64,000 nt of DNA from Eledone cirrhosa. Lineage: Eukaryota. The stretch is taken from the NCBI GenBank assembly GCA_964016885.1, contig OZ024743.1, forward strand, positions 118,544,001 to 118,608,000. Direction: 5' to 3'. The notes below the pieces were generated by a model. That model worked only from the letters and a program-made list of their open reading frames with translations, was not told the DNA's origin and did not search any database. Of the stretch, positions 4,953-29,742 are shown one piece after another (within the stretch, counting starts at the first letter, position 1; every line of letters starts with the position of its first letter). The translations under genes and the position numbers were made by a program.

Positions 4953-6350
4953 CTATATATTGGGCTTAAAGTTTTGGAAGGAATGTCTGAAGCGGTGCTG
5001 GCAAGTTGCAAACACCTCAGATTTTTTATTAAGTAGGTTACGGTTGGAGAAGATAATATTGTGTGTCTCTAGTATACAGAGGTTACAAAATTGATTAGGT
5101 GGTTTGTGCGAGGTCGCGCTGCCTATCACTTCCCATTTGAGTGTGTATGGTTTATTTTTAGTTTTTAGATAGTGTATGTAGCTAGAAAGTGAGGTGGAGT
5201 TGGCTAGGCTGTACTTTTTGAACGAGTGGATGTGCGAATTATATCTGATTTTGAAGCAGTTAGAAGTGGAGCCTACATAGCTTTCTGAAGAGTTGCTAGT
5301 CGTGACGGTGCATGAGTATATGATATCCTTGGTTAGGCATTTTTTATCTAAAGGGCAGGTTCTATTAGCTCTACAGTTACAATTATCCTGTGTGTTAGTC
5401 TGCTGGTTATAATGCAGTGCGGAAGTCCGTGTGGTAGCTATAGGATTTTGGACGTTCGGGTTGTCAACCCTGGTGTTATTACTTATACTAGTGTTATTTC
5501 TATTGTTACTGCCGTTACTATGGTTGCTTGTTACAGAGGTATTTAGAGGTTTTGCATCTTGTTGTGATTTTGTTTGTTGGAAGTAAGAATTAATTTTACT
5601 TTTATTGCTGTTAGCTATGTGGTATGCTAAGTTAGGCGTCGTAGAGTATGAGCTTTTAATGGTGTTTTTGTTTAAGAGGTTGTGGTACTTGTGTCCTAGA
5701 GGGAAGTTTTTATCTAGTAGTGAGAAGAAAGCCCTAGGTATGTTGGTGGAGACATTTAGGTTGAAAGGAGGGTTGAAAAATGTATTATTTCTTCTTCTAT
5801 TTTTGCTTTTAGTGTTTGGTGTGTTGCTTCTTCCTAAGGCACCACAGTAGTTTCCATGGTAATGGTTACTTCCGGTGGCACCCTCCACTTTGGTGTACTT
5901 GTGGTTGCTATTCCTATTATTAGGTTTCCTCATGGACATGTTGTGCGATATGATGTTGTAGCTATGTGTTTTCTTAGGTAGGAACTCAATTTCTATATTA
6001 TGGCCGGATCTAGCTAATGCTTGATTGTAATATTGTGAGTTTTTGCTAAATATGTTTGCGTCATAGGACAGACTAGAGATTCTATTGGACACCCCCTTAG
6101 AGATAGAGTTTAATATTGATCTAGGGTGATTGGACTTGGTATCTACATAAATAAGTTTCTCGTTAGGCTTATGGAAGGGTGTATATATTTTTGAGTCTAG
6201 GTATAGTGTGGCTTCTAGGAAGTTAACATTTTTAGTGTTTTTGTCCATGGTGATACTAAGGTTAAAGTTTTTGAATATCTTATGCAATTGTTTTCTAGTT
6301 CTTTCTATATTAAATTTTTTATATTCTATAAGTAGAAGTGCATCATCCAC
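4953..6350 (-). pseudogene. 5'-truncated PLE ORF: RT from the catalytic DD onward, thumb, Cys linker and GIY-YIG endonuclease
   Basis: DDALLL, VNFLEATL, SNHP..I, FFNPPFNLNVSTNI, CNCR...CPL..C, IIYSC...YVGST..FKIRY..H, C..C..E, LLNKKSE. The start is created by the inversion junction. Confidence 0.88.
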
Positions 6351-6612
6351 ACATATCTCTCTGCCACACTATATAAACAAGACGCACATGCCTGCCACAC
6401 ATATAACATTTGCACTATATAACCGCTTATCTTCATGTTGTATTTTAACCTGTATTTTTGATTTTTGATTGTACCTCTTAATATGAATGTAATCTCGAAA
6501 TGTGTACTGCCACTCTAAATTCTGTAATGAATGTTGACCCACAATGTTTGCATATGTATCGGTATGTCTCTTGGCTGAAAAGGAGGTCATATAACTGTCC
6601 ATGCATTAATAA

Positions 6613-6665
6613 ATTGCTCCGAAGAATCCAAACCTCGGTTTGGAGGAAACAGCTGTAAGCACAAT
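6613..6665 (+). ncRNA. Same hammerhead-like motif in the inverted PLE-A pseudo-LTR
   Basis: Exact reverse-complement copy of 3454-3506. Confidence 0.7.
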
Positions 6666-6745
6666 AATGTTTTGAACAGTTCTTTGATTCTTATATTTCA
6701 TATATATATACATATATATATATTTATATACATATATATATTTAC

Positions 6746-8772: not shown

Positions 8773-9465
8773 TATATATGTGTGTGTGTGGATGTATGTG
8801 AACCCGGGCACATATACGTACCAATGCACATGTTTCCATAGTCACTTAACACTTTTGATATCAAATCGCCTGAAACCATGCTTGGTTCTACAGTACCACT
8901 TTAAAATATTTCTAATGATCTAAAACCTTCTATTATAATTTTTTGTAAGGAACTTTATTAAGTTATATTCCAAGCTAAATCTTAATGATGAGATTGTCGA
9001 TTATGTTACCAAGCCTTTCCAAATATTTCAGTATTTGTAAAATTATTTGATAAAATGAATAGCGTCTTCCATGGAAAATATGGTAACGAATAGATTAAAT
9101 CAAAATATGCATATATACATACTCAGGAGTAGATATTCAGAACCTTACAAAAGCAAAAAACACAGACATTCATACATACATATATACATACATACATACA
9201 ATCAAAAAGTGGACAAAGATCGCAGCTCTCTAATAGATAGAGTACAAATGACCGCGATATCTGGCACCTTCAAAATTTGCAAAACATTCTTGCGATTCAA
9301 GGGATGACACTTTCTTTTCTTTTATAACCTTGCCACCAGGAAGGTGGCCGGTCAAAAATGTACTCGAAATTAAGAGAAAGAGAATATAAATACATACATA
9401 CATACATACATACATACATACATACATACATACATACATACATACATACATACATACATACATAC

Positions 9466-10652
9466 ATGGTGGCTGCCAACTCGTTTTCGAGTACGGCCAC
9501 TACTTTATATCCATGTAGGAGAACCGCTACCGATGCGCTGAACGAGATAGCGACTTGAAAACTCTGGTACAAACACTACACTTGTGACAATTATTGACAC
9601 ATAGTGCTGGGCCCATGGCACCATGTGACGACAAGTGCAGAGAGATCTCCAGATATAAAGCAATGCCTGTGCCGTGAAGCTTTTATAGTGAGCAAAGGCA
9701 CTGCACAAAGCCAGTCCCACTCTCTTAACCAAGATGATATTTACCAAAAAGAAGTACAAGTCAACATCATTGGATACCATCAGGGTTGCAGGTGTTATAT
9801 CAGAGTTTTCCTTCTCCTAGAATTCTGCCTTGACAAAGGCTAAGGGGTCATCTTTCCCGGTGATTTTGGATGGCCATTGACTCTTAAGAGCTCCTTTTCC
9901 CTTTGACAGATTTTGTTTTTAGTCCTGCAGGATGTCCAAAGTCACCCTCCTCACCAAGAAACCTTGGTGGGGTTGCCAGTTTAGTCGCCAACGACCCGAC
10001 CATGAGACAGGTTGTACTGGGATACATACATACATACATACATACATGGTGGCTGCCAACTCGTTTTCGAGTACGGCCACTACTTTATATCCATTTAGAA
10101 GAACCCCTACCGATGCGCTGAACGAGTGTGACTTTTTAGTCCAGCCAGCGACTTGAAAACTCTGGTACAAACACTACACTTGTGACAATTATTGACACAT
10201 AGTGCTGGGCCCATGGTACCATGTGACGACAAGTGCAGAGAGATCTCCAGATATAAAGCAATGCCTGTGCCGTGAAGCTTTTATAGTGAGCAAAGGCACT
10301 GCACAAAGCCAGTCCCACTCTCTTAACCAAGATGATATTTACCAAAAAGAAGAACAAGTCAACATCAATGGATACCATCAGGGTTGCAGGTGTTATATCA
10401 GAGTTTTCCTCTCCTAGAATTCTGCCTTGTCAAAGGTTAAGGGGTCATCTCTCCCGGTGATTTTGGATGGCCATTGACTCTTAAGAGCTCCTTCTTCTTT
10501 GACAGGTTTTGTTTTTAGTCCTGCAGGATGTCCAAAGTCACCCTCCTCACCAAGAAACCTTGGTGGGGTTGCCAGTTTAGTCGCCAACGATCCGACCAAG
10601 AAACAGGTTGTACTGGGATACATGTTACCAGTAGCACCAACTGTGACCTGAC
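9466..10652 (-). mobile_element. Two tandem copies of an about 580-bp non-coding retroposon-like unit in (TACA)n, possibly derived from an RTE 5' UTR
   Basis: 9466-10024 and 10046-10652 are highly similar, and each ends in (TATG)n on the minus strand. No protein motif was recognised. The RTE link is recalled resemblance only. Confidence 0.6.
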
Positions 10653-11285
10653 ATATACATACATACATACATACATACATACATACATACATACATACAT
10701 ACATACATACATACATACATACATACATACATACGACCACACAAAGAGAGAGACAGACATCAAAAACTAAAAAATCAAATGCACACACAAGCGTAAAATT
10801 GAACGCACATATACGTAAACTAAAACGTATATCATTACAAATATTGACAGGGACATATATACACTCATACACACGTACATGAATATAGAAAAACAAATAT
10901 ACGAACTCACAAACACAGAACTGAACCAAACCCAAACACACACAAACGAAAGCACACGAACACACACACACTAACACACTAACACCCCCACCCACACACA
11001 CATACATATACACACATGCACACACACACTAACACACTAACACACTAACACCCACACACACACACATACACATACACATGCACACACACTAACACACACA
11101 CACACACATACACACACACACGCTAACACACTAACACACACACATACACATACACATACACACACACACGAACATCTCTAGATAAGGACAGATGTTTCGG
11201 TTATGCACTAATTACTAATTTAATGATACATATTTGATTTAGGAAATGTCATCTAATTTATGTTTACACAAAGTGAAATTCGTCG

Positions 11286-11318
<33 letters not shown>

Positions 11319-11452
11319 GGGGTGATGATGGAGCTGGCCATATTCGTGATAGTGACAATAATGATAATGACGATGACCAAACAACTATGATGATAATTAT
11401 AATGGTTTGTATTCCCTATACGCAATAGTCGATATATATATTACACACATGC

Positions 11453-11518
<66 letters not shown>

Positions 11519-11719
11519 ATATTTGGGGAGGGTCATATTTGCGTAATATTGCCAGAATTAATAACAGAACACACTCACTGTTTGGTTGGTTTTCGCTTCT
11601 CGCTGTCTTTTATATATATATATCTGCGATCTAACTTACTCGGTCCTCAATGTTGCCATTGACTGACCGGCGGTCAAAAATAATACAGATACAATATAGA
11701 CAAACACTTATATATATAG

Positions 11720-11766
11720 TTTACATAAATCTTTCGTTGCACATCTGCAACATCGTCAGTGGTGTT
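11720..11766 (-). ncRNA. Minimal hammerhead motif in the PLE-B pseudo-LTR (identical copies at 15850-15896 and 19980-20026)
   Basis: acacca-CTGACGA-t-gttgca-gatg-tgcaac-GAAA-gatt-TA-tgt. Stem II is a perfect 6 bp and stem I is weak. Confidence 0.68.
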
Positions 11767-12036
11767 ATATTCATTGTTCCTCCTGTTGTGTTGTATGTCT
11801 ACGCCATTTTTTTTGTTCAGTCTGTCTATATATTTATTTATTTATTTGCTTGTTTGTTTATCTTATTTTATTTTGTCTTCTTTGCGCATGCGTTTGCGTG
11901 TGTGTATAGTGTTATGTGTGATGTGTGATGTGTGACTAGTGTGTATAGTGTTGTCTGCTGGGTGACTAGTGTGTGTTTATGTGCTTGTGTATGTATTTAT
12001 TTATCTTATTTTATTTAATTTAATTTACTTATTTAT

Positions 12037-15000
12037 TTATACTTCTCTTAGGTCAGTGTTGTTTGTTTGGGTGTTGTTGTTGTTCCACTCATTCTTTCTG
12101 TTTAGCTTTGGTCTTCTAATTTCTATTTCACTGGCCTCTCTGATTTGCCTATCTGCTGGGTCATTCCTATGTTTAGATATTATTCTAATTTCTATGTTGT
12201 CTATGTTACCGTCATGATGTTGTCTAGCATGTTCGTATAGTACTGGCCCGTTTTTTCGTCCTTTTAGTTCCCCCCAGTGTTGGTCTATCCTTTCACCTAT
12301 GCTACGAGCTGTCTCACCTATGTATGTTGTTGTCGTGTTTCTGCAAGTACCCTCTGTACATCTTATGCTATAGACTACGTTTCTAGTTTTACAGTTTATC
12401 CGGGGGTTCACCTTACATATGATACATTTCCTATTGGTACAGTGGGTTTTCTTAAAAGGGTAGGTTTTGCTGATCAGGGATTTTATGGTGGTTCCTGGCT
12501 TTTCTACCACCTTTATTTTTAAGTGGGTCTTTCTCAGGGCCTTTCTACACTGGTTAGCTAATTTCCCTCCAGGGGTGGCGTCCACAAACATGACACTCTG
12601 ATATCTCTGGTTGTCGTACCATGATGTGGCCTTCCCTATCTTATGTCTAGCCCTATCTAAGCTATTCCATGATTTGCTCCTGTATAGTGGGCAAATTCCT
12701 TTCATGTCCAGTTCTATGAGGGTCTTATACTTTTCCATGGCTCCTTCGTATACTCTGACTCTGTCTCTTTGGTTGTAGCCAGAGAACTGCATGCGGTTGA
12801 TGAAGTGTTGGATGTGTCCTTCCATTTCTGTTGGGTCGCACATGCTGGACACATTCTTCATCACTCGTACCAAATCTGCGATCAGAATATTAAACTTAGC
12901 ACTACTGGACATTGCTGAGTTTTTGAGTATCAGGTATTTGGAGGCCATGGGTTTAGCATAGTGTGAGTGGAGAATTTGGGCTCTCTCGTCTATAGTGTTA
13001 ATCCAGAGTTCTGTGTCTAATACAGGTAGTCTATTGTTAGGGTGTTTGGAAGGGAAGTCTATAGTTACAGTTATACTCTGGTGTATGGAATTAGCTATCT
13101 GCTGGATGCTTTCCATCGTGCTACGTTCTAAATCAAACTTGTTAGTGCTCTCTAGTGGGGGTGTTCTTATAACTATATTGATATCGTCTACATAACGAGA
13201 GTACATGATGAGGTCTATGGAGCTTTCATTAAGGAGATCTTTAAGTCTCCTTTCCCACCATACCATGAAAAGGTTGGCAACATCGCCAGCTATGCTGACG
13301 CCGATGGCTGCTCCCTCATTTTGGGTGTAGATTTTCTCATTGAACTTAAATATGTGGCCCTTTAGGGTAGTTTTGATACTAGCCCCTATTGCATGTGCGA
13401 CCATTTTTCTTACCTGATCAGTGTTTTGGGGGGTCCGTATAGCTTTGGTCCACCCAATCCACCTTCCTATGGGAGTCTTTTTAGCCATTGAGGTTATGGT
13501 GGGGGGTCTACCTCTTATAGGTCTACTAGGGCAGAAACATCTAAGGTCATGGCTGTCTAGGTAGTCAGTGTCGTAGGTAAGTCTAAGTAGGAGGCCCAGT
13601 TCGTCTGTGTCGACGTCGCAGAACTCCACCTCACTCTCAATGATCATCTCCACACATCTTTTCACAGCAAAATCAATGTTAATGGATGGGTACAGTGACA
13701 CCACATCCATGCTGCCTATTATGCAGTTGGATAGGCTCCTGTTTTTGTTGCACTCACTGATTCTGCTGAGGAGGTCCTCTGTACTTTCACATACATCTGG
13801 GGACATCTTGATTATGGGGCGTATAACCATTGAGAGGAAGTAGGAGATCCTGTAGTTGCTAGCTATATTAGCTCCGCATACAGGTCTTGTTGGTGGTCCT
13901 ATTGTCGGGTCGTCGACTGTCTTGTGGTCTTTGCGGAGCCCATACAAGGGTGGTATGCCATTGTTAGACGCCTGGAAGTTGTTGGCAGTGCGTCTGCTTG
14001 GCTTTAGGATGTCAGTCCACATCATCATGTGAGCGTTGAGGATTTTTTCTCTCCCATCGTGTGTTAGTTGTGCAACTTCGCTCGTGTTGGTGATGTGGGG
14101 TTGCATTGCCTCGATGTAGTTCGGCATGCTATCTATTGACATCCTACCAGACTTATCTGTGGGTAGACACACTACCTCACCATCCCTTGTGCGCTGCTTG
14201 AGGCTAACCAAGCCTTCTACAGGTTTTATCCCAAGTTGTTGGGCCTCTGGTCTGCTCTGTCTCATAGTGTACCTGTCTACTACTTGTCTAATCTTATTTC
14301 TAGCTATGGTGAACTGTGCCTCCGTCTCGTCATCTATTTGTTGTGGTATGCAAACTCTTTTATTAAAGGGTAACCTCGTAGGATAGATATTACCCATCTT
14401 ATATGTTTTGTCAGCTGGGTTGAAAAATAGTTTCTCTAAGGGGTTGTCGTTATTTCTATCGTCATAGTTGTGTGTGTTGCTATTATTGTTATCATGGTGG
14501 TTGTTGTTGTTTCTATCCTTAGCATTAATATTATTATTGTTATGATTGCTAGATGTATTGTTGTTTACTTCACCGTTATTGTTGTTGTTACTGCTATTTC
14601 TACCATTGTGGTTGTTACTATTATTATGTTTCTTGTTTTTGTTGATGTTGCTACATGTACTATTTCCATTATTACCACTGTGGTTATTGTTGTTGTTGTT
14701 GTTCGTATTGTTACCGTTATTACTACTGTGGTCACTGTTGCTGTGTCTGTGGTTAACGTTTCTATTATTATTATTATTGTGGTTGTTGTTGTTCTGTCTA
14801 TCGCTAGTATTATTACCATTATCACTATTTCTCACTTTCCTGCCATTGTTATGGTTATGGCTGTTATTTCTATACCCAGAGTTATTGTTTATATTACTAC
14901 TACCGTTATTATTGTTGTTGTTGTTTACCTTTGCATTCCAACGTATTTTTGTGAAACACTTTTCCAGCTCCGTTTTGCATTCCATAGGATTAATCTTTTT

Positions 15001-15666
15001 GTAGATGGCAAATTTTGGTGGTAACTTTAGGATTTGTTGTTCTTGTTCACTGATTAAAGTGTTCCCATAGATATTTACTGTGTGGTCATTGGTAAATTCT
15101 TCCGGTAGTTTTACATCACTCATACGGATGTTGTCGATGTTATCTGGGTATTTTTGAGAATATTCGATTTTCCTTTCTTGTAGTTTTTTCTTATTCATCC
15201 ATTCTAATTTCTTCTTGAAATGCCTACAGCATTCGTTTTGAGCATATTTCGTTTCGCGTCGGATGACGCTCATGAAGTCATCTCTCTCGTTTGCTGTGAT
15301 GAGATTTCGGATTTCCTTACCGTTGATGCGTTTTTGTCTGTAGAGTGCGTTGACTTTTGTGTATGTTGTTCTTTTCATATTAACTGTTATTGTGTGTTTT
15401 AGCCGTTCAGCTTGTGTTTTGTTCAATAATAAATTATTTACTTGTTTTGATATGTTTGTTGTGTATGTTTTGGAGGAAACACAGTGTTTTAAGAAGCGGA
15501 TTTGTTCTGTTGTTATTGTAGTTTTTATATAACAGAAAACAGTGTCTTTCAATAACCTTTCAGCTTGGCACAAGCTAATGCCATAGCGGCGATGAATTAG
15601 TTTTGCGAGGTTTTTTATATGAAATCGTGTGTCGAAACAGATATTGTTATATTTGGGGAGGGTCAT
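12037..15666 (-). CDS. PLE polyprotein, 1209 aa: Asn-rich insert, reverse transcriptase and GIY-YIG endonuclease
   Basis: PTDKSG, LYGLRKDHK, RPVC, SMDVVSLYPSI, GAAIG, RYVDD, LPVLD, C..C/C..C linker, VVYSI...YIGETAR..ER..H, R...E...I, PKLN. Confidence 0.95.
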   Translation of the reverse strand: MTLPKYNNICFDTRFHIKNLAKLIHRRYGISLCQAERLLKDTVFCYIKTTITTEQIRFLKHCVSSKTYTTNISKQVNNLLLNKTQAERLKHTITVNMKRTTYTKVNALYRQKRINGKEIRNLITANERDDFMSVIRRETKYAQNECCRHFKKKLEWMNKKKLQERKIEYSQKYPDNIDNIRMSDVKLPEEFTNDHTVNIYGNTLISEQEQQILKLPPKFAIYKKINPMECKTELEKCFTKIRWNAKVNNNNNNNGSSNINNNSGYRNNSHNHNNGRKVRNSDNGNNTSDRQNNNNHNNNNNRNVNHRHSNSDHSSNNGNNTNNNNNNNHSGNNGNSTCSNINKNKKHNNSNNHNGRNSSNNNNNGEVNNNTSSNHNNNNINAKDRNNNNHHDNNNSNTHNYDDRNNDNPLEKLFFNPADKTYKMGNIYPTRLPFNKRVCIPQQIDDETEAQFTIARNKIRQVVDRYTMRQSRPEAQQLGIKPVEGLVSLKQRTRDGEVVCLPTDKSGRMSIDSMPNYIEAMQPHITNTSEVAQLTHDGREKILNAHMMMWTDILKPSRRTANNFQASNNGIPPLYGLRKDHKTVDDPTIGPPTRPVCGANIASNYRISYFLSMVIRPIIKMSPDVCESTEDLLSRISECNKNRSLSNCIIGSMDVVSLYPSINIDFAVKRCVEMIIESEVEFCDVDTDELGLLLRLTYDTDYLDSHDLRCFCPSRPIRGRPPTITSMAKKTPIGRWIGWTKAIRTPQNTDQVRKMVAHAIGASIKTTLKGHIFKFNEKIYTQNEGAAIGVSIAGDVANLFMVWWERRLKDLLNESSIDLIMYSRYVDDINIVIRTPPLESTNKFDLERSTMESIQQIANSIHQSITVTIDFPSKHPNNRLPVLDTELWINTIDERAQILHSHYAKPMASKYLILKNSAMSSSAKFNILIADLVRVMKNVSSMCDPTEMEGHIQHFINRMQFSGYNQRDRVRVYEGAMEKYKTLIELDMKGICPLYRSKSWNSLDRARHKIGKATSWYDNQRYQSVMFVDATPGGKLANQCRKALRKTHLKIKVVEKPGTTIKSLISKTYPFKKTHCTNRKCIICKVNPRINCKTRNVVYSIRCTEGTCRNTTTTYIGETARSIGERIDQHWGELKGRKNGPVLYEHARQHHDGNIDNIEIRIISKHRNDPADRQIREASEIEIRRPKLNRKNEWNNNNTQTNNTDLREV

Positions 15667-16166
15667 ATTTGCGTAATATTGCCAGAATTAATAACAGAAC
15701 ACACTCACTGTTTGGTTGGTTTTCGCTTCTCGCTGTCTTTTATATATATATATCTGCGATCTAACTTACTCGGTCCTCAATGTTGCCATTGACTGACCGG
15801 CGGTCAAAAATAATACAGATACAATATAGACAAACACTTATATATATAGTTTACATAAATCTTTCGTTGCACATCTGCAACATCGTCAGTGGTGTTATAT
15901 TCATTGTTCCTCCTGTTGTGTTGTATGTCTACGCCATTTTTTTTGTTCAGTCTGTCTATATATTTATTTATTTATTTGCTTGTTTGTTTATCTTATTTTA
16001 TTTTGTCTTCTTTGCGCATGCGTTTGCGTGTGTGTATAGTGTTATGTGTGATGTGTGATGTGTGACTAGTGTGTATAGTGTTGTCTGCTGGGTGACTAGT
16101 GTGTGTTTATGTGCTTGTGTATGTATTTATTTATCTTATTTTATTTAATTTAATTTACTTATTTAT

Positions 16167-19100
16167 TTATACTTCTCTTAGGTCAGTGTTGTTTGTTTGG
16201 GTGTTGTTGTTGTTCCACTCATTCTTTCTGTTTAGCTTTGGTCTTCTAATTTCTATTTCACTGGCCTCTCTGATTTGCCTATCTGCTGGGTCATTCCTAT
16301 GTTTAGATATTATTCTAATTTCTATGTTGTCTATGTTACCGTCATGATGTTGTCTAGCATGTTCGTATAGTACTGACCCGTTTTTTCGTCCTTTTAGTTC
16401 CCCCCAGTGTTGGTCTATCCTTTCACCTATGCTACGAGCTGTCTCACCTATGTATGTTGTTGTCGTGTTTCTGCAAGTACCCTCTGTACATCTTATGCTA
16501 TAGACTACGTTTCTAGTTTTACAGTTTATCCGGGGGTTCACCTTACATATGATACATTTCCTATTGGTACAGTGGGTTTTCTTAAAAGGGTAGGTTTTGC
16601 TGATCAGGGATTTTATGGTGGTTCCTGGCTTTTCTACCACCTTTATTTTTAAGTGGGTCTTTCTCAGGGCCTTTCTACACTGGTTAGCTAATTTCCCTCC
16701 AGGGGTGGCGTCCACAAACATGACACTCTGATATCTCTGGTTGTCGTACCATGATGTGGCCTTCCCTATCTTATGTCTAGCCCTATCTAAGCTATTCCAT
16801 GATTTGCTCCTGTATAGTGGGCAAATTCCTTTCATGTCCAGTTCTATGAGGGTCTTATACTTTTCCATGGCTCCTTCGTATACTCTGACTCTGTCTCTTT
16901 GGTTGTAGCCAGAGAACTGCATGCGGTTGATGAAGTGTTGGATGTGTCCTTCCATTTCTGTTGGGTCGCACATGCTGGACACATTCTTCATCACTCGTAC
17001 CAAATCTGCGATCAGAATATTAAACTTAGCACTACTGGACATTGCTGAGTTTTTGAGTATCAGGTATTTGGAGGCCATGGGTTTAGCATAGTGTGAGTGG
17101 AGAATTTGGGCTCTCTCGTCTATAGTGTTAATCCAGAGTTCTGTGTCTAATACAGGTAGTCTATTGTTAGGGTGTTTGGAAGGGAAGTCTATAGTTACAG
17201 TTATACTCTGGTGTATGGAATTAGCTATCTGCTGGATGCTTTCCATCGTGCTACGTTCTAAATCAAACTTGTTAGTGCTCTCTAGTGGGGGTGTTCTTAT
17301 AACTATATTGATATCGTCTACATAACGAGAGTACATGATGAGGTCTATGGAGCTTTCATTAAGGAGATCTTTAAGTCTCCTTTCCCACCATACCATGAAA
17401 AGGTTGGCAACATCGCCAGCTATGCTGACGCCGATGGCTGCTCCCTCATTTTGGGTGTAGATTTTCTCATTGAACTTAAATATGTGGCCCTTTAGGGTAG
17501 TTTTGATACTAGCCCCTATTGCATGTGCGACCATTTTTCTTACCTGATCAGTGTTTTGGGGGGTCCGTATAGCTTTGGTCCACCCAATCCACCTTCCTAT
17601 GGGAGTCTTTTTAGCCATTGAGGTTATGGTGGGGGGTCTACCTCTTATAGGTCTACTAGGGCAGAAACATCTAAGGTCATGGCTGTCTAGGTAGTCAGTG
17701 TCGTAGGTAAGTCTAAGTAGGAGGCCCAGTTCGTCTGTGTCGACGTCGCAGAACTCCACCTCACTCTCAATGATCATCTCCACACATCTTTTCACAGCAA
17801 AATCAATGTTAATGGATGGGTACAGTGACACCACATCCATGCTGCCTATTATGCAGTTGGATAGGCTCCTGTTTTTGTTGCACTCACTGATTCTGCTGAG
17901 GAGGTCCTCTGTACTTTCACATACATCTGGGGACATCTTGATTATGGGGCGTATAACCATTGAGAGGAAGTAGGAGATCCTGTAGTTGCTAGCTATATTA
18001 GCTCCGCATACAGGTCTTGTTGGTGGTCCTATTGTCGGGTCGTCGACTGTCTTGTGGTCTTTGCGGAGCCCATACAAGGGTGGTATGCCATTGTTAGACG
18101 CCTGGAAGTTGTTGGCAGTGCGTCTGCTTGGCTTTAGGATGTCAGTCCACATCATCATGTGAGCGTTGAGGATTTTTTCTCTCCCATCGTGTGTTAGTTG
18201 TGCAACTTCGCTCGTGTTGGTGATGTGGGGTTGCATTGCCTCGATGTAGTTCGGCATGCTATCTATTGACATCCTACCAGACTTATCTGTGGGTAGACAC
18301 ACTACCTCACCATCCCTTGTGCGCTGCTTGAGGCTAACCAAGCCTTCTACAGGTTTTATCCCAAGTTGTTGGGCCTCTGGTCTGCTCTGTCTCATAGTGT
18401 ACCTGTCTACTACTTGTCTAATCTTATTTCTAGCTATGGTGAACTGTGCCTCCGTCTCGTCATCTATTTGTTGTGGTATGCAAACTCTTTTATTAAAGGG
18501 TAACCTCGTAGGATAGATATTACCCATCTTATATGTTTTGTCAGCTGGGTTGAAAAATAGTTTCTCTAAGGGGTTGTCGTTATTTCTATCGTCATAGTTG
18601 TGTGTGTTGCTATTATTGTTATCATGGTGGTTGTTGTTGTTTCTATCCTTAGCATTAATATTATTATTGTTATGATTGCTAGATGTATTGTTGTTTACTT
18701 CACCGTTATTGTTGTTGTTACTGCTATTTCTACCATTGTGGTTGTTACTATTATTATGTTTCTTGTTTTTGTTGATGTTGCTACATGTACTATTTCCATT
18801 ATTACCACTGTGGTTATTGTTGTTGTTGTTGTTCGTATTGTTACCGTTATTACTACTGTGGTCACTGTTGCTGTGTCTGTGGTTAACGTTTCTATTATTA
18901 TTATTATTGTGGTTGTTGTTGTTCTGTCTATCGCTAGTATTATTACCATTATCACTATTTCTCACTTTCCTGCCATTGTTATGGTTATGGCTGTTATTTC
19001 TATACCCAGAGTTATTGTTTATATTACTACTACCGTTATTATTGTTGTTGTTGTTTACCTTTGCATTCCAACGTATTTTTGTGAAACACTTTTCCAGCTC

Positions 19101-19796
19101 CGTTTTGCATTCCATAGGATTAATCTTTTTGTAGATGGCAAATTTTGGTGGTAACTTTAGGATTTGTTGTTCTTGTTCACTGATTAAAGTGTTCCCATAG
19201 ATATTTACTGTGTGGTCATTGGTAAATTCTTCCGGTAGTTTTACATCACTCATACGGATGTTGTCGATGTTATCTGGGTATTTTTGAGAATATTCGATTT
19301 TCCTTTCTTGTAGTTTTTTCTTATTCATCCATTCTAATTTCTTCTTGAAATGCCTACAGCATTCGTTTTGAGCATATTTCGTTTCGCGTCGGATGACGCT
19401 CATGAAGTCATCTCTCTCGTTTGCTGTGATGAGATTTCGGATTTCCTTACCGTTGATGCGTTTTTGTCTGTAGAGTGCGTTGACTTTTGTGTATGTTGTT
19501 CTTTTCATATTAACTGTTATTGTGTGTTTTAGCCGTTCAGCTTGTGTTTTGTTCAATAATAAATTATTTACTTGTTTTGATATGTTTGTTGTGTATGTTT
19601 TGGAGGAAACACAGTGTTTTAAGAAGCGGATTTGTTCTGTTGTTATTGTAGTTTTTATATAACAGAAAACAGTGTCTTTCAATAACCTTTCAGCTTGGCA
19701 CAAGCTAATGCCATAGCGGCGATGAATTAGTTTTGCGAGGTTTTTTATATGAAATCGTGTGTCGAAACAGATATTGTTATATTTGGGGAGGGTCAT
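16167..19796 (-). CDS. PLE polyprotein, 1209 aa, second intact copy
   Basis: Identical to 12037-15666 except KNGSVL versus KNGPVL. Confidence 0.95.
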   Translation of the reverse strand: MTLPKYNNICFDTRFHIKNLAKLIHRRYGISLCQAERLLKDTVFCYIKTTITTEQIRFLKHCVSSKTYTTNISKQVNNLLLNKTQAERLKHTITVNMKRTTYTKVNALYRQKRINGKEIRNLITANERDDFMSVIRRETKYAQNECCRHFKKKLEWMNKKKLQERKIEYSQKYPDNIDNIRMSDVKLPEEFTNDHTVNIYGNTLISEQEQQILKLPPKFAIYKKINPMECKTELEKCFTKIRWNAKVNNNNNNNGSSNINNNSGYRNNSHNHNNGRKVRNSDNGNNTSDRQNNNNHNNNNNRNVNHRHSNSDHSSNNGNNTNNNNNNNHSGNNGNSTCSNINKNKKHNNSNNHNGRNSSNNNNNGEVNNNTSSNHNNNNINAKDRNNNNHHDNNNSNTHNYDDRNNDNPLEKLFFNPADKTYKMGNIYPTRLPFNKRVCIPQQIDDETEAQFTIARNKIRQVVDRYTMRQSRPEAQQLGIKPVEGLVSLKQRTRDGEVVCLPTDKSGRMSIDSMPNYIEAMQPHITNTSEVAQLTHDGREKILNAHMMMWTDILKPSRRTANNFQASNNGIPPLYGLRKDHKTVDDPTIGPPTRPVCGANIASNYRISYFLSMVIRPIIKMSPDVCESTEDLLSRISECNKNRSLSNCIIGSMDVVSLYPSINIDFAVKRCVEMIIESEVEFCDVDTDELGLLLRLTYDTDYLDSHDLRCFCPSRPIRGRPPTITSMAKKTPIGRWIGWTKAIRTPQNTDQVRKMVAHAIGASIKTTLKGHIFKFNEKIYTQNEGAAIGVSIAGDVANLFMVWWERRLKDLLNESSIDLIMYSRYVDDINIVIRTPPLESTNKFDLERSTMESIQQIANSIHQSITVTIDFPSKHPNNRLPVLDTELWINTIDERAQILHSHYAKPMASKYLILKNSAMSSSAKFNILIADLVRVMKNVSSMCDPTEMEGHIQHFINRMQFSGYNQRDRVRVYEGAMEKYKTLIELDMKGICPLYRSKSWNSLDRARHKIGKATSWYDNQRYQSVMFVDATPGGKLANQCRKALRKTHLKIKVVEKPGTTIKSLISKTYPFKKTHCTNRKCIICKVNPRINCKTRNVVYSIRCTEGTCRNTTTTYIGETARSIGERIDQHWGELKGRKNGSVLYEHARQHHDGNIDNIEIRIISKHRNDPADRQIREASEIEIRRPKLNRKNEWNNNNTQTNNTDLREV

Positions 19797-20305
19797 ATTT
19801 GCGTAATATTGCCAGAATTAATAACAGAACACACTCACTGTTTGGTTGGTTTTCGCTTCTCGCTGTCTTTTATATATATATATCTGCGATCTAACTTACT
19901 CGGTCCTCAATGTTGCCATTGACTGACCGGCGGTCAAAAATAATACAGATACAATATAGACAAACACTTATATATATAGTTTACATAAATCTTTCGTTGC
20001 ACATCTGCAACATCGTCAGTGGTGTTATATTCATTGTTCCTCCTGTTGTGTTGTATGTCTACGCCATTTTTTTTGTTTTTTTTGTTCAGTCTGTCTATAT
20101 ATTTATTTATTTATTTGCTTGTTTGTTTATCTTATTTTATTTTGTCTTCTTTGCGCATGCGTTTGCGTGTGTGTATAGTGTTATGTGTGATGTGTGATGT
20201 GTGACTAGTGTGTATAGTGTTGTCTGCTGGGTGACTAGTGTGTGTTTATGTGCTTGTGTATGTATTTATTTATCTTATTTTATTTAATTTAATTTACTTA
20301 TTTAT

Positions 20306-21260
20306 TTATACTTCTCTTAGGTCAGTGTTGTTTGTTTGGGTGTTGTTGTTGTTCCACTCATTCTTTCTGTTTAGCTTTGGTCTTCTAATTTCTATTTCAC
20401 TGGCCTCTCTGATTTGCCTATCTGCTGGGTCATTCCTATGTTTAGATATTATTCTAATTTCTATGTTGTCTATGTTACCGTCATGATGTTGTCTAGCATG
20501 TTCGTATAGTACTGACCCGTTTTTTCGTCCTTTTAGTTCCCCCCAGTGTTGGTCTATCCTTTCACCTATGCTACGAGCTGTCTCACCTATGTATGTTGTT
20601 GTCGTGTTTCTGCAAGTACCCTCTGTACATCTTATGCTATAGACTACGTTTCTAGTTTTACAGTTTATCCGGGGGTTCACCTTACATATGATACATTTCC
20701 TATTGGTACAGTGGGTTTTCTTAAAAGGGTAGGTTTTGCTGATCAGGGATTTTATGGTGGTTCCTGGCTTTTCTACCACCTTTATTTTTAAGTGGGTCTT
20801 TCTCAGGGCCTTTCTACACTGGTTAGCTAATTTCCCTCCAGGGGTGGCGTCCACAAACATGACACTCTGATATCTCTGGTTGTCGTACCATGATGTGGCC
20901 TTCCCTATCTTATGTCTAGCCCTATCTAAGCTATTCCATGATTTGCTCCTGTATAGTGGGCAAATTCCTTTCATGTCCAGTTCTATGAGGGTCTTATACT
21001 TTTCCATGGCTCCTTCGTATACTCTGACTCTGTCTCTTTGGTTGTAGCCAGAGAACTGCATGCGGTTGATGAAGTGTTGGATGTGTCCTTCCATTTCTGT
21101 TGGGTCGCACATGCTGGACACATTCTTCATCACTCGTACCAAATCTGCGATCAGAATATTAAACTTAGCACTACTGGACATTGCTGAGTTTTTGAGTATC
21201 AGGTATTTGGAGGCCATGGGTTTAGCATAGTGTGAGTGGAGAATTTGGGCTCTCTCGTCT

Positions 21261-21264
<4 letters not shown>
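20306..21264 (-). pseudogene. 5'-truncated third copy of the PLE-B ORF (thumb and GIY-YIG)
   Basis: Matches the C-terminal about 320 aa and is truncated at (TA)n at 21265. Confidence 0.93.
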
Positions 21265-21300
<36 letters not shown>

Positions 21301-21509
21301 TAATATGCAAAACGTGAAACCGAAGAAACCAAGCAGACGCTGCAGCACGATTTAAAAATATATTAGTTTAACGCTTGATATAGTGTGAAAAGAGTCTTAA
21401 CGTTTCGGACACTTGTCCTGCAGCAAAAGATGAATTAGAAAGATAGAGAGTGAGAATGGGAAGGAACGGACAAAATTGTTTTAAGAGGAAGAGGAAGCGG
21501 CCATTATTG

Positions 21510-22475: not shown

Positions 22476-23791
22476 GAATGGAGGATCAAAAAAGTTCGCG
22501 GAGTTTTTCAGAAAATATTCTATTTTTCAAAAAATATGATTTACCATCAATTTATTTTTCTACATAGTTTGATATCCAGGTCAATACACTTGACAAGGCG
22601 ATGCTTCCAGCTTCGTAAGCCGTCTCTAAAGAAAGTTGAAGGCCTTGTTCGAAGCCATGTGTTGGCAGTGCTTTTAGCTTCTTCAACACCACTAACACGG
22701 GTTCCTTTTAGCATTTCTTTGAGTTTTGGAAAGAGGAAAAAGTCTGATGGGGCTAAATCTGGACTATAAGGCGGGTGAGGAAGCACTTCCCATCGAAATT
22801 CTCGAGGAACTTCTTTTGCAACCCACGCAGAATGCGCTGGTGCATTGTCATGGTGAAACAAGATCCCACCATGAAGTTTCCCTTTTCGTTTCTTGACTAA
22901 AGCCTCTTTCAGCTTCCTTAAAACATTTGCATAGTAAGCTCCTGTCACAGTTCTTTGACCTTCAAGATAATCTATTAGTATCACCCCATCTGAATCCCAG
23001 AAAATGGTGGCCATCACTTTTTGATCCGACTTTTGAGATTTGAACTTGATTGGCCCCGATGATCCACGTGGAAGCCACTGTTTTGACTGCTGTTTGGATT
23101 CAGCATCATACTGGTAGATCCAGGTTTCATCTCCGGTGATGATTCTGGTCAGGAAATGCTCTTCATCAACTTCAATTTTGTTTAATATCGTCAAAGACAG
23201 ATCACTTCGAAGAATCAGCTGATTAGGGCGTAACGCTTTTGGGACGGATCGCGCTGAAAGCTTGCTTAGTCCCAAATTATCGTGTAGAATTGAATTTGCC
23301 GAACCATATGAAATGTCTAGGGACTTAGCTAACTGATTAACTGTTATTCTTCGATCTTCTTCAATTAAAGTCTGAGCAGCCTCAACGTTTTGGTCATTTT
23401 TTTTATGTTCCTAGTCTTCCTTGTGATGGTCGTCTTCAAGGTCGTCTCTCCCTTGTTTGAATCGCTGAATCCACTTGTAGAGAGCAGTTTTCTTTGGAGC
23501 AGTAGTACTGTAAACTTTAACTAAAACCTCCATAATCTGTGTCCCTTTCCATTTCAGTTTCACCAGAAACTTGATATTCGATCTTATCTCAAAATAACTA
23601 TTTTCCATTGTTCCAAAACGAGGTTTTTTAAAGAGTGTCAGTACTGTACAATAGTCCACGCATAACTGACTGCAAGTGACTAATAGCAAGGTAAACACCC
23701 AGTGACAATGTTCTGACATGTTTAATATTGTTTTAATCTATTTTTTTCTTACTACGATAAAATTCCGCGAACTTTTTGATCCCCCATCGTA
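22473..23791 (-). mobile_element. Mariner (DD34D) transposon, full-length but decayed
   Basis: Imperfect TIRs of about 30 bp (acga.tgg.ggatcaaaaagttcgcgga.tttt) flanked by TA runs. Length is about 1.3 kb. Confidence 0.93.
22547..23608 (-). pseudogene. Frameshifted mariner transposase
   Basis: TGDETW, HHDNAPAH, YSPDLAPSDF and a degenerate WVP (RSVPKAL). The N-terminal HTH part is in a separate frame (23411-23608). Confidence 0.92.
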
Positions 23792-23958
23792 TATATATAG
23801 GAGGAGGTTATAGTTCACTTGAAGCATTGTGTAATGAGGTATAAACGTTTGTATATGTATAATAAAGCCAAAACAATGCCGGTATGGACATAGAATAAAG
23901 AATGCAAATGCAAAAGATATTGTTGACAATTAGTCTTTTACTTTAGATTTATTTAAAT

Positions 23959-23997
23959 GTCCTTAATTTTCGAGATAATATCTCTTCTTCGGAGGGA
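23959..23997 (-). ncRNA. Minimal hammerhead-like motif with a CCGAAGA core in the PLE-C pseudo-LTR (decayed copy at 27112-27150)
   Basis: cct-CCGAAGA-a-gagat-att-atctc-GAAA-at-TA-agg, with palindromic stem III AATT. Confidence 0.6.
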
Positions 23998-24414
23998 AGT
24001 AAAGCGGTTAAACCAGTGTTCTAAATAGCTTACCAAGTCATGTTGACAGGAAATGGTATAGAGTATCTGTTCTATCTCTAATGTCAAAGAGTTAAGGTTA
24101 GGTGGATAAATAGTAGTCTCCCTTTAAAAGTTATTATTTTGTACATGCCTGTTTAAGTGTGTGGGAGAATGCATGAAGGTGTAAGTATGTGAGTGTGTGT
24201 GTGTGAGTGTGAGAAGATATGCCTATACGTAAATGTGGGGGATAGATGTTATCTCGTGTTAGAACTGGTCTTTGTGTGTGTATGTGTGTGTGTGAGAGAG
24301 AATAAGTGGTGGTGTAAGCGTGTGTGTGTGTGTGCGTGTGTGCGTGCGTGTGTGTGTGCGTGTGTGTGCGTATGTGTGTGTGGGGTGTGTGTAAATATGG
24401 GGCTAGAAGCTCTA

Positions 24415-26979
24415 TCAAGTTATAAATTGGGTGTTGAGTTCTAGTCTATTATTGATTGGTGGTAGTGTTTTGTCTATAATTAGTGCTTCCTTAATTCTAA
24501 GATTGCCGAGGTTTCTTTCCTTAGTTTCTATCCTAACTGTTATGGTTTTGTCGGTGCTTTTGCATTTAACTAGGTGTTTCTTAAATAAGGAAGCGTTAGT
24601 ATGGAGGTGTTCTTTTATTCTTATGTGGAGTGGTCTGGTGGTGCTACCTACGTAGAAGTTGCTGCATTTGTCACACTCTAGACTGTATACGCCGTAAGCC
24701 TGGTGGCATAGGTCTGTGTCGTTGATGGAGCAGTTGGCTAGCCTGCAGCAGTTGTCATGTCTGGTGGAGTGTCTTTTGGTTAGCTGTCCGCGTAGAGAAG
24801 GGCCTGAGTGGGCCAGTTGGATATCTAGTCCCTCTCGTCTGATAGCTCTGCGGATGGCTGTTGTTGTTTCGTCACTGAAGTGTGGGAGCTTCAGGAAGCA
24901 AGTATTAGTGCCTCGGGTGTGGTGTCCTCTGTTCTTTCTAGCACGGTTTGTGGTGGATGTCTTGTATCCGTTAAGTTTGAGTACTTCCAGGAAATGTGTG
25001 GTGTGCGTGTCTCGGTCTCTAGCGTCGGTGCATTTGTTCCGGATACGTGTAGTTCGTTCCTTATGTATCCGAACATAGCGCCGGCTGGGAGGGCCGATCT
25101 GAAATGTACGAACAGCTCCCTGCTGGCGGCTTTTTTTATAGAAGCAAGTATGGATGTTGCCTTCCTCTGTTACCCTGAGTTGGAAGTCCAGTAGGGAAAG
25201 GGATCCGCGGTCATCGGGGTGTTCCATGCTGAACTTTATACTGGCGTCCATGCTGGAGAATGTTGTGTATATTTTATCTGCCTCCTCACGGGATGATGTA
25301 AGGATGAGTATTTCATCTACATATCGTGTGAAGAAGGTATGGGAATGGCAGGTGTTGAGGGCTCGGCATTCTAGCTGGTTCATATAGGTGATGGCCAGCA
25401 GATCCGATAGGCTGGATCCCATGGGTAATCCTGTTGTCTGTCTGTATGTGTGGTGGTGGAAGGTGAAGTATGTGTTGTCTACTGTGAAGGACAAAAGCTG
25501 GTGTATGTCCGTCGGGTGGAGGCCGTAGCAGTGGATGTCCTCTGCGACCACGCAGTCCGTCAATAAATCGACAGCTGGATGAGCGGGGACTGTAGTGTAG
25601 AGGGAGACAATCTCGAGGCTAAAGGCGTATCTATTTAGTTTAAGTTGTTCTGTCTGGAGTTGGTGTAGTCTCCGTATAACTTCGTCGGAGCTACTGACAT
25701 GCCCGGGAAAGGTGGAGAGTAGAGGCTTGAGGACCTGCGAGAAGAGCCAGGAAATTTTGTATAGGGGTCCTTCTATGCTGGAGACGATGGGTCTTATTTG
25801 CGTCTTAGTACTATTCTTGTGGGTCTTGATGAGGTGGTAGAAAGTGGGCAGTCTGCTATTTCTAGTGGTGTAGTTGAGCTTAACTTTATTTGGCAGTTGT
25901 CTTCTCCTACAGATATCGAACCAGATGGAGTTGGTCTGTTTTTCGATCTGGGCTGCAGTCATGTTTGGGATCTCTGTATATAATTCATTGTCGCTTAGAT
26001 GTTCAAAGGCTAGGTTGTTGTATGTGGCTTGAGATATGACGCAAAACTCTTTACCTTTGTCGGATGGTAAGTATATAAGTTCCCTATTCCGTAGGTTCTT
26101 CAGGGCGAGTTGTTGTGTCCTGGTGAGGTTTGGGGATATCTTCTTCTGTTTCCGTAAGATGTTAAATGCGGAATGTTTTAGCCCCAAGAGTTTTTCTTCA
26201 AGCTCGCGGTTGGCAGGCGGTGGACAGAGTGAGTGGGCGATCCAGTTGGTATATCGGGAATCTGGGTTTATTATGATTCCGTGGTGTTGTTGCCGAGATC
26301 GATATCCATTTTAGTTGGTAGGCAGCCCGACAGAAATTCGTTTCTATGTCGAGCCATAATTTGTCGTCCAGTCTCTGTTTTAATATGAACTTGGGACCCA
26401 GGCTGAGGAGGTCTAATTCCTCTCGGGAGAGGGATCCTGTCAAGTCTGTGACGAGGTGTTTTGCGTCAGGTGTGTTGTTGGTCGGGGCACCGCTAGGCTC
26501 GGTGTTGGTACCGTCTTGTTCACCTCTGTTGGTGCTTAGAGTTGGGCTGTTGTAAAGACGGTTAGCCGTGCTGAGTTTGAGAAATTTTTGGCGTTAGGCG
26601 TATTTTCTCGTAGTCTCAGAGATGGTAGTATGACCTGTCTATAGCGGCGGAGATAACTCTGGACAGAGGTTCTGGGGTTTCAGCGAGTTGTGGTACAAGG
26701 CTAGAAATAGTCCGTATGTGTTGTTGTAGCGTGCGGTGTAGGTGTTGTATGAGTTTTCTTAGGCAGAATGTTTGTATGTAACTAAGTGATCGTTTGAGGC
26801 CTGGTGATTTGAAGCATGTTTGTAGGTGCAAATTTTTGATAGTTTTGGGGATGATGTTGTTATTCAGACATCGTTTTAGGAAGTTTATTTGGCAGCTAGC
26901 TGGAAGAGTTTCTTTACAGTTGTGAACTGGGCCTGGCTCAGGCGTAAGGAAAGGAGGGGGTTATAGTTCACTTGAAGCA
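24415..26979 (-). pseudogene. PLE-C RT/GIY-YIG ORF with frameshifts, stops and YVDE at the catalytic site
   Basis: LLSLGPKF, PSDKG, LIKTHK, IRPIVS, SLYT, GLPMGS, RYVDE, VYSL.C..C..FYVGSTTR...R..EH, IKEALII. Confidence 0.9.
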
Positions 26980-27389
26980 TTGTGTAATGAGGTATAAACG
27001 TTTGTATATGTATAATAAAGCCAAAACAATGCATGTATGGACATAGAATAAAGAATGCAAATGCAAAAGATATTGTTGACAATTAGTATTTTACCTTAGA
27101 TTTATTTAATTGTCCTTAATTTTTGAGATAATATATCTTCTTCGGAGGGAAGTAAAGCTGTTAAACCAGTGTTCTAAATAGTTTGTTAAGAACTCTGGTT
27201 AAACCAATGTTCTAAATAGCTTGCCAGAACACTGGTTTAACCGCTTTACTTCCCTATACTTAAACAAACGTTTATATATATATATATATATATATAATTA
27301 TATATATAATTATATATTCATGTACAGATATTTTTGCATACACAATAAGGATAAATATATATCAAATATATAACAACCCTAGAGAAAAT

Positions 27390-27960: not shown

Positions 27961-29188
27961 ATTCGGTTTATTTTCTTTACATATTGTCCAGGCATGCAGT
28001 TTTTTCACGATTACGTCTGTTGGCAGCCCTCGTTCCAAAATACCTGAACCCTTTGCACACACGCGCAGACAGACACGTCTGTATACACACACGCTTATAT
28101 ACACCCGTATATAAACACATAGACAAACCCTGTCCTATGTGGGCGTACGTACGCGCCCACACACACACACCCACTGACAGATACTCACACCATATATATA
28201 TGTGTCTGTCTGCGCTTGTGTGCGCGTTTGCGTGCATGTGAGACCGGATGTATGGCGCGGTTTAGGCAGGCGCTAATAGGCTTGTGGCGGTCGGTATCTA
28301 GAAGTGGGTGTGCCTGGGTTTGTGGAAGAGAGGGAGAGTGTGTGCGCCTATATATGTGCATGGCGGTATGTGCGTCTACGTATGTATGCGTACATTTGTG
28401 CATGCACGCATGTGTCTGTGCCTGCCCGTGTGTGTGTATATGTGTTTGTGTGTATGTGTGAGTACATACTCTAGAGTGTGAACAGACGTGTGAGATACCG
28501 AACCCAGCATGACTCCATTGAAGTGTATCGGACAGAGAATGGCTGATGACCCGTGTAGCAGTAAATAGTGACCAGAACTTAAGATGACGTGGAATAGCAA
28601 CAGCCAATGGCATAACAAGAGTGGAAGATGTTTTTTGAAGGTGTTCTTTTGACGACAACACCCCAGGGAGAAGATTTTCTCCGAACGAACTACCCGTGTC
28701 CGAGGAACTTGCAGCCGTAGAATCAGCCAGATCCATACAGTGATCATGTTGGAGCTACCTGCCGGCGAAACAATTGTAACACGCAATAAACTGAGTCCAG
28801 ATGCATCACTGATTTTTCGTTTTTTATACTATCCACACTCTACTCTGTATGAATATTGCGTGCTAATTTTGGCATACCGCCTATAGAAGCACCATAGCTA
28901 CCATTATACACAAGTATATATATATATATCTCAAAGGTATATATTGAGTTAGAAACTCAAAATAGTCTCTTACAATAAAATAGCTCTAGAAAAGAGATTT
29001 TTCCGAGCCGTATATTATAACTGAATATAAAAGAAAAGCAAACACAGATATATACATGAGTTCAAATCGTTAGGGACCAGATTCGCTAAGGTGAAAAGAA
29101 TACTAACTATAGACAATAGGGTTTGCCAGACTCAATTTAAGAATAAATCAAGAAAGTAAATACAAACCGGAATTGTGGTAATTACCAA

Positions 29189-29675: not shown

Positions 29676-29742
29676 TTGGGATATATTTATATATATATTT
29701 ATATTTATATATATATACATACATATACATACATATATATAC

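Follow-up and report, generated by a model that had tools for sequence, protein, structure and literature searches.

Tandem units of a Penelope-like retrotransposon within (TA)n of Eledone cirrhosa and a conserved insert in the fingers of its reverse transcriptase

Overview

A stretch of 64,000 nucleotides from the octopus Eledone cirrhosa (assembly GCA_964016885.1, contig OZ024743.1, positions 118,544,001 to 118,608,000 of the forward strand; hereafter the window) contains a tandem of a Penelope-like retrotransposon (PLE) inside a (TA)n microsatellite. We read the array, 2.36 head-to-tail units on the minus strand, as a recent insertion in one event of an element whose reverse transcriptase (RT) carries a conserved 70-amino-acid insert in the fingers, which likely helps to grip the primer-template duplex (probability about 0.68). 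Tandem layout, hammerhead motif and insertion into (TA)n are all standard for PLEs, and the architecture of the locus is already known. The insert and the lineage to which the element belongs are the subjects of most of what follows.

Structure of the tandem array

The following features define the array.

11511-21265, minus: whole insertion, 2.36 PLE units, period 4130; 5' truncation at 21265, 3' end (11511) at position +26 of the open reading frame (ORF)
11453-11510, no strand: target microsatellite, (TA)n, flanking the array on its 3' side; the AT repeats run into the last bases of the element
21267-21306, no strand: target microsatellite, (TA)n, flanking the array on its 5' side
20067-20084, minus: 9-bp tandem duplication, in unit 3 only

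The number of units follows from a length of 9755 bp, less the 9-bp duplication, and the period of 4130. Self-BLAST of the window aligned 11511-17126 with 15641-21265 at 99.82% identity (5625 columns, one mismatch, one gap), and a base-by-base comparison of units 1 and 2 left a single difference, G at 12246 versus A at 16376. The partial unit 3 has A at the equivalent position 20515 and a duplicated T8G at 20067-20084. The stretch that is covered three times is therefore present in three versions (G without the duplication, A without it, and A with it), which is not expected of one collapsed diploid locus. The first-pass annotation, made by eye from the letters, had counted about 2.4 near-identical units with the same substitution and an indel near 20070 as their only differences, and this was borne out; its array end at 21264 has to be corrected to 21265.

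Beside the tandem with its pseudo-long-terminal repeat (pLTR), a 5' truncation and a tail are present, as in the layout of other PLEs. No target-site duplication is readable, owing to the overlap between these AT repeats and the 3' terminus. Beyond the (TA)n tracts the flanks were unique on both sides in the self-BLAST of the window. Just outside the array, two adjacent copies of about 590 bp with 93.9% identity were observed at 9442-10623.

Open reading frames and protein domains

The coding features are listed below for both complete units.

12037-15666, minus: ORF of unit 1, 1209 aa, RT and C-terminal GIY-YIG endonuclease (EN), with S1141P (base 12246)
16167-19796, minus: ORF of unit 2, likewise 1209 aa; residue 1141 is the Ser typical of the family
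20306-21265, minus: third ORF, 5'-truncated, 319 aa, comprising thumb, linker and EN
17313-18293, minus: RT core of unit 2 (PTDKSG at 18293, KDHK at about 18068, motif A at 17837, motif B at 17453, RYVDD at 17327)
17553-17765, minus: conserved insert of about 71 aa that separates motif A from motif B, ORF aa 678-748, unit 2
13423-13635, minus: the same insert in unit 1
16224-16571, minus: CX4CxxC linker zinc finger and GIY-YIG EN with CCHH, unit 2 (unit 1: 12094-12441)
18552-19061, minus: in-frame stretch rich in Asn (81 of 170 aa) that lies after the RW motif and before the RT; unit 2 (unit 1: 14422-14931)

Both ORFs of 1209 aa are free of stop codons, and the RT motifs DKSG, A, B and YVDD as well as the GIY-YIG, CX4CxxC and CCHH residues are all present. 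The EN occupies aa 1076-1191 and has the conserved motif VYSIRC..YIGET..R..H..E..N. The sole substitution between the units changes Ser1141 to Pro in the EN of unit 1. In this column 56 of 68 relatives have Ser, and Pro is not among the top five residues. Of the two full copies, unit 2 is the more promising as a working one, since this site is conserved. The first-pass statement that the RT and GIY-YIG motifs are intact thus stands for the motif residues and the open frames, but not without reservation for the EN of unit 1.

An AlphaFold model of aa 421-1209 reached a mean predicted local distance difference test score (pLDDT) of 90.8 and a predicted template modelling score of 0.88. The structures most similar to it are those of telomerases (Z 14.9, root-mean-square deviation 4.8, 297 residues aligned), and telomerase reverse transcriptases (TERTs) fill the top 14 rows. 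At the level of profiles, the family was matched to conventional PLEs with E 6.5e-55. In Pfam, the full ORF matched 0 families, and the GIY-YIG family was not matched by the query itself; the trimmed protein gave only a sub-threshold match to RVT_1 (21.8 vs 29.6 bits), which may explain why the family has been overlooked. A sequence search of the PDB yielded only RTs with weak similarity (best E 5e-7) and histones that matched by chance.

The closest named relative is a protein of Octopus vulgaris (68% identity), and the neighbouring PLEs of the window likewise match octopod proteins. Another O. vulgaris protein, annotated as an isoform similar to dynein regulatory complex subunit 6 (P0097), starts with about 150 aa of the RT of this family at 74% identity, due either to exonisation or to a gene-model artefact. 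A further relative (L001, 38-2289) lies on a 2.7-kb contig in a bacterial genome record and is probably a eukaryotic carry-over. The Asn-rich segment resembles the in-frame (AAY)n-rich segment that leaves the ORFs of Adineta vaga Penelope elements open (PMC3846280), but in the octopus unit it comprises 170 aa with 48% Asn on the N-terminal side of the RT, whereas that of A. vaga comprises about 460-550 aa with 25-30% Asn and follows the RT core (PMC3846280).

The insert between RT motifs A and B

The insert, which the first-pass annotation did not mention, separates motifs A and B of the octopus element by 128 aa. Among the relatives from the first search, 95 of 99 have a spacing of 126-138 aa (4 were not measurable). 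A spacing of 117-159 aa was found in 78 of 150 profile matches, the best 150 of 3092 clusters, while 72 of these lacked one motif by pattern. Conventional PLEs have 55-60 aa at this place (100 of 102 measurable proteins, out of 124 matches), as does a Nematis-like PLE 3 kb away in the window, and the profile-profile alignment put its gap between motifs A and B as well. In Fig. S1 of PMC8557442 we counted by eye about 60 aa for Nematis, 81 for a Naiad, 119 for the longest Chlamys and 115 for human TERT.

The mean column conservation of the insert is 0.48, compared to 0.42-0.56 in the other domains. Twelve of 71 columns are conserved to at least 80%, two Arg among them, and Glu, Arg, Gly, Pro and Trp each stand at positions that hardly vary; in the extended loop, R295 (93%), P302 (99%) and R315 (96%; model numbering) stand out. 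The insert is predicted to be ordered (pLDDT 89-97) and to consist mostly of helix and loop. A separate model of the segment from motif A through the insert to motif B (pLDDT 88.8) was compared to TERTs: 81-89 residues, roughly the part outside the insert, aligned at 3.4-3.6 Å, a weak match on a predicted fragment, and longer alignments of 108-120 residues had deviations of 11.5-13.8 Å. With the insert fragment, Foldseek gave no match at E up to 0.001, the best Z among 48,161 chains was 5.2, and the Atlas search returned only unnamed short clusters.

The IFD of telomerase (IFDa-TRAP-IFDc) has the same position and a similar length, and in telomerase the IFD-TRAP, with a largely beta-sheet TRAP, contacts primer and template (PMC10055720). 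The octopus element has no TEN domain and is a mobile element with an endonuclease. According to PMC8557442, an IFD links the PLEs with N-terminal EN to telomerase, whether by inheritance or by repeated gain, and with which function, being left open there; canonical PLEs with C-terminal EN are described in the same source as devoid of it. A C-terminal-EN PLE with an insert of this kind was not found in the literature searched, which did not extend to Repbase, Dfam and the Arkhipova papers of 2006-2007, so that a description under another name is possible. The strings GGAIG, GGPIG and ALYPS had 0 matches in the supplement of PMC8557442, where long cells were cut at 400 characters.

We tentatively prefer the view that this site gained its insert independently of telomerase, because the insert is predicted as helix and loop versus the beta-sheet TRAP and its predicted fold does not superpose on TERT. 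The insert would then be an analogue of IFD-TRAP that steadies a short primer without homology to the RNA and supports the synthesis of long cDNA, as a putative clamp. That the insert is instead a structural or protein-contact module, for example for dimerisation, with no part in binding primer and template, is possible, albeit somewhat less so. A conserved hydrophobic helical core (ELGLYL-like), the predicted dimerisation of a Poseidon protein (PMC11167929) and the loss of the IFD in some Naiads, by which it can be dispensable (PMC8557442), fit such a module, but the near-invariant Arg, Gly and Pro of the extended loop would be more typical of contact with nucleic acid. True homology between insert and IFD, by inheritance from an ancestor of PLEs and TERT, we consider improbable; in that case the family would link TERT to the C-terminal-EN PLEs. 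The position between two bracing helices and the similar size (A-to-B about 115 aa in human TERT by eye, PMC8557442) speak for homology; the helix-and-loop prediction as opposed to the largely beta-sheet TRAP (PMC10055720) and the failure of the predicted fragment to superpose on TERT speak against it. The trees described below contain no TERT, Naiad or Chlamys sequences.

Placement among PLE clades

After removal of the insert from the alignment, the family formed one side of a long branch, with an SH-aLRT (Shimodaira-Hasegawa-like approximate likelihood ratio test) support of 100 in a tree of 39 rows and with support 100/100 and a stem of 1.46 substitutions per site in a tree of 30 rows. The first tree holds 39 of 55 aligned rows and the second 30 of 40 chosen rows, 10 having been dropped on a failed motif search (6 of the family, 2 Poseidon-like, 2 Hydra). 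Both trees are unrooted and without verified Neptune, Naiad, Chlamys, Athena, Coprina or TERT sequences, and the clade labels derive from motifs in figures of PMC8557442 and a few named matches; the label Nematis is based on motifs and one named nematode protein (P0193). The mean RT identity of the family is 21% to the Nematis-like, 20% to the Poseidon-like and 16% to the Hydra rows, while the Nematis-like and Poseidon-like rows share 26%. A grouping of the family with the Nematis-like rows had a weak support of 48/90. Neither a sister relation to Hydra (p = 0.40 in the approximately unbiased test) nor a monophyly of the Nematis-like rows without the family (p = 0.41) was rejected.

Nematis shares with the octopus element a single ORF with the RT followed by the EN, a CX2-5CxxC linker and a short spacer to the CCHH Cys (PMC8557442 Figs S1, S2 and S7), and furthermore the VEKPG-like end of the linker, a long HK-RP loop and a hammerhead in the pLTR (PMC8557442). 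It differs in the A-to-B spacing (about 60 aa in the C. remanei Nematis of Fig. S1, PMC8557442, vs 128) and in its motifs, which are DKGGE, KTHK, RPII and GLAMG in comparison to DKSG, RKDHK, RPVCG and GGAIG. With the Hydra clade the element shares the motifs DK[S/T] (DKS in the octopus), KDHK and YPS, the insertion into (TA)n and a hammerhead on the 3' side (PMC8557442). Hydra elements, in contrast, are described there as lacking CCHH and an IFD, with a CxCX5C linker, a divergent RT4 and less than 3 kb; membership is ruled out by the CCHH, the CX4CxxC linker, a standard QxxG in RT4, the 70-aa insert and the 4.1-kb unit (4130 bp).

Naiad and Chlamys also have an insertion between RT3(A) and RT4(B), and Naiads also target (TA)n, but both have an N-terminal EN and a CxC motif and mostly lack hammerheads (PMC8557442). 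Their insertions (about 20 aa in Naiad and 20-40 aa in Chlamys by the text of PMC8557442) are shorter than that of the octopus element, whose C-terminal EN excludes it from both. Neptune is excluded by the spacer from CxxC to the CCHH Cys, which comprises 7 aa compared to about 25 aa (PMC8557442 Fig. S2/S7), and has no IFD in that source; Penelope/Poseidon is excluded by the CX4CxxC linker, as this clade is without a linker zinc finger. On the tested features the element is not assignable to a described clade, and its place may be near Nematis or Hydra. The lineage is large and likely undescribed. The family profile retrieved 3092 clusters at E up to 1e-30, of which those beyond the best 150 may include other PLEs.

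Hammerhead-like motifs and the 5' leader

Between the ORFs, each unit contains a hammerhead-like motif and a predicted hairpin.

11720-11766, minus: hammerhead-like motif 1, minimal type I, core start 11759
15850-15896, minus: hammerhead-like motif 2 with its core at 15889, an unpaired U following A9, 6 bp in stem II and a palindromic stem III
19980-20026, minus: hammerhead-like motif 3, core start 20019
15735-15830, minus: long predicted hairpin between hammerhead and ORF start (pLTR, 5' leader), repeated in each unit

The cores (CUGANGA-stem II-GAAA) at 11759, 15889 and 20019 are spaced by exactly 4130, as had been stated in the first-pass annotation, which holds at the level of the motif. 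Motif 2 would likely be cut after 15856, with an alternative after about 15847 (UUA or CUA, ambiguous). A strict core with a stem II of at least 6 bp occurred in 2 of 1000 shuffles of the unit and in 0 of 1000 shuffles of the 500-nt region between the ORFs. The motif is real. Catalysis is doubtful, however, because Rfam gave 0 matches for the window at its gathering threshold and, with E allowed up to 10, no hammerhead within 11000-16600, the four folded segments holding the motif are not more stable than their shuffles (z -1.14 to +0.23), and the self-duplex of stem III has 0.0 kcal/mol. In addition, stem I has only 2 contiguous pairs. With its unpaired base after A9, 6-bp stem II, palindromic stem III and 2-bp stem I the motif resembles a hammerhead variant of D. 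virilis (PMC4209133), and low in vitro activity is reported for such minimal PLE hammerheads in the same paper. A scan of genome contigs gave a single relative (L001, 1 of 12 pattern matches); its hammerhead-like motif, at 2541 and about 230 nt after the stop codon, is degenerate with two core changes.

Of five folded segments, the one with the leader hairpin had z -2.66 (2 of 200 shuffles as stable). A perfect splice-donor-like hexamer lies in it at about 15769, with an AG 62 nt on (15708-15769), and adjoins the 5' junction of the main piece of the small insertion described below. A leader intron of 62 nt is nevertheless doubtful because a pyrimidine tract is missing.

Insertion ends and origin of the tandem

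A second, small insertion of the same family is present in (TA)n in the window.

1061-1142, no strand: mini insertion, 61 nt ending at ORF +20, head-to-head with an inverted piece of 23 nt ending at ORF +84

Both pieces of this 82-bp insertion are 100% identical to the unit, though too short for tight dating; they are 5'-truncated and each abuts (TA)n. The array itself ends at ORF +26, inside the start of the next ORF and 215 nt past the putative UUA cut, which indicates that the template ran on into the next unit. A linear monomer cut by the ribozyme, of the kind that hammerhead cleavage would release according to the first-pass annotation, is ruled out as the template by this position.

The ends of the array and of the mini insertion fit the published 'tail' mechanism with internal starts of the Anolis element Poseidon_Ac (PAc; PMC11167929). 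PAc nicks and extends both strands, has two internal start sites in the ORF and uses an unprocessed RNA as template; its hammerhead is dispensable, as ribozyme mutants insert normally and no RNA ends were found at the cut, and it is the only PLE tested in vitro according to that paper. PAc and the octopus element both occur as tandem loci at AT-rich targets with 3' ends inside the beginning of the ORF; a pair of start sites and the extension of both strands are further common features. The two differ in the position of the starts (about 111-118 nt into the ORF in PAc, as opposed to ends at +20/+26 and +84) and of the hammerhead, which overlaps the start codon in PAc (PMC11167929) but lies about 190-220 nt upstream of the ATG in the octopus.

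Based on these ends, the GIY-YIG domain would nick the (TA)n tract, and the RT would start internally, a few codons into the ORF, on an RNA that continues into the next unit, copy about 9.7 kb and then stop. The template would be, with slightly better than even odds, an uncut read-through RNA from a tandem donor; a circle comes next, and exact template jumps are the least probable of the three. The hammerhead would be weak and of the dimer type, and insertion probably does not depend on it.

Using an octopus rate of 0.0036 per site per million years (PMC13282606), one substitution in 9746 bp corresponds to about 0.03 million years (upper 95% about 0.16 million years), if no homogenisation has occurred. 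For O. vulgaris, 30 recently active Penelope families are reported (PMC13282606), and a young octopus PLE is therefore not news. The tandem most likely arose in one event from a template longer than a unit; the corresponding first-pass view of a young PLE from a single event agrees with this.

Alternatively, the hammerhead could cleave and ligate its RNA to a circle of 4130 nt, as proposed in PMC4209133 and in line with the circular template considered in the first-pass annotation, which the RT would then copy in 2.36 rounds. The seamless units, the exactly periodic motifs and the self-complementary stem III, as known from dimer-type hammerheads (PMC4209133), are compatible with such a circle, and a start at ORF +26 would also be allowed. 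However, stem I of 2 bp, the stem III self-duplex of 0.0 kcal/mol and the missing Rfam match, the poor cleavage of minimal PLE hammerheads (PMC4209133), the normal insertion of the anole ribozyme mutants without RNA ends at the cut (PMC11167929) and the two core changes in the similar motif of L001 make it an unlikely origin. Less probable still is an initial insertion of 1.36 units to which unequal crossover between the repeats later added one more; partial tandems are the usual form of PLEs (PMC8557442). Their 1.5 kb of perfect homology would permit the exchange, but nothing demands it: errors of the RT or later mutations explain the differences equally well, and the identity and youth of the element would be unchanged. 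An assembly duplication as the source of the extra unit is very improbable. Near-identical units between microsatellite flanks, the trouble of short-read assemblies with PLE tandems (PMC8557442) and a 9-bp event that could be a homopolymer sequencing error would be in line with it; yet three versions are more than two alleles of one unit can provide, and the flanks are unique beyond (TA)n.

Some points weigh against a recent one-event insertion by an RT with a gripping insert. Homogenisation or duplication after the insertion would mimic youth, and a read-through and a circular template are indistinguishable from one locus. Unit 1 carries S1141P at a conserved site. The role of the insert is deduced only from its position and its conserved basic residues, the predicted models offer no structural support for a TRAP-like fold, and conventional PLEs without the insert also form tandems (PMC11167929).

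Other elements in the window

Beside the array, further mobile elements were detected. A Hydra-clade PLE at 3415-6704 beside (TA)n is 5'-truncated with an open frame of 471 aa (4953-6368, minus) and possesses a 369-bp inverted copy (98.4%). Its linker includes an Asn-rich stretch, and near 3497 lies a hammerhead-like motif whose core is changed. The Nematis-like PLE at 23799-27184, without the fingers insert, has a pLTR pair (23799-24031 and 26952-27184, 95.7%), a frameshifted ORF, altered catalytic residues and, at 23992, a variant of the hammerhead core; it lies within or directly beside a mariner-type transposase (22547-23737; Pfam Transposase_1, E 1e-21) that is split by a stop near 23410.

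An imperfect palindrome at 29185-29679 (500 bp, 84%) beside (TA)n contains two opposed type I hammerheads at 29261 (minus) and 29603 (plus) with a proper stem III and a GUC site, and probably represents the head-to-head ends of another PLE family. A CA-rich stretch at 30005-31320 ends in a minimal hammerhead (30124, minus) and (TA)n and is likely the 3' end of a further PLE. At 31491-31830 (plus) lies an old remnant of a related insert-bearing family member (63% amino acid identity over 76 residues of the thumb region). A SINE-like dispersed repeat of about 190-200 bp occurs in many copies of 82-94% identity at 34653-62327, with a tandem of 3.1 copies of 201 bp at 51217-51832; a hammerhead core was not found in it.

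The first-pass annotation had regarded the array as a candidate for the trans-mobilisation of retrozymes embedded in (TA)n. The other hammerheads of the window (the inverted pair 29261/29603, 30124 and 23992) have no sequence in common with the unit (blastn, word size 7). Retrozymes are tied to PLEs by shared pLTR sequence in a preprint (10.64898/2026.07.22.740005); trans-mobilisation is unsupported here because such shared sequence is absent. In PMC3846280, cross-mobilisation between PLE types was not observed either.

Implications

The element inserts like other PLEs. Its locus and the 82-bp sibling extend the mechanism with internal starts, so far known from one Poseidon element, to a distant lineage. 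The point of interest is this lineage: a large family with C-terminal EN and an insert that is longer, conserved and predicted to fold differently bears on the question of the origin of the IFD raised in PMC8557442. An experiment in which the insert is deleted would be simple, because the copy is uninterrupted and young and an in vitro assay for PLEs exists. As a tentative and rather unlikely extension, the family may constitute a ninth major clade of PLEs, abundant in marine animals and missed by annotation at the level of Pfam, whose RT independently evolved a second fingers-like clamp at the position of the IFD that enables it to copy RNA of several units in one pass, the octopus tandem being a live member that is ready for expression. 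If this is true, the tandem of E. cirrhosa would provide a member in which the function of the IFD outside of telomerase could be tested.

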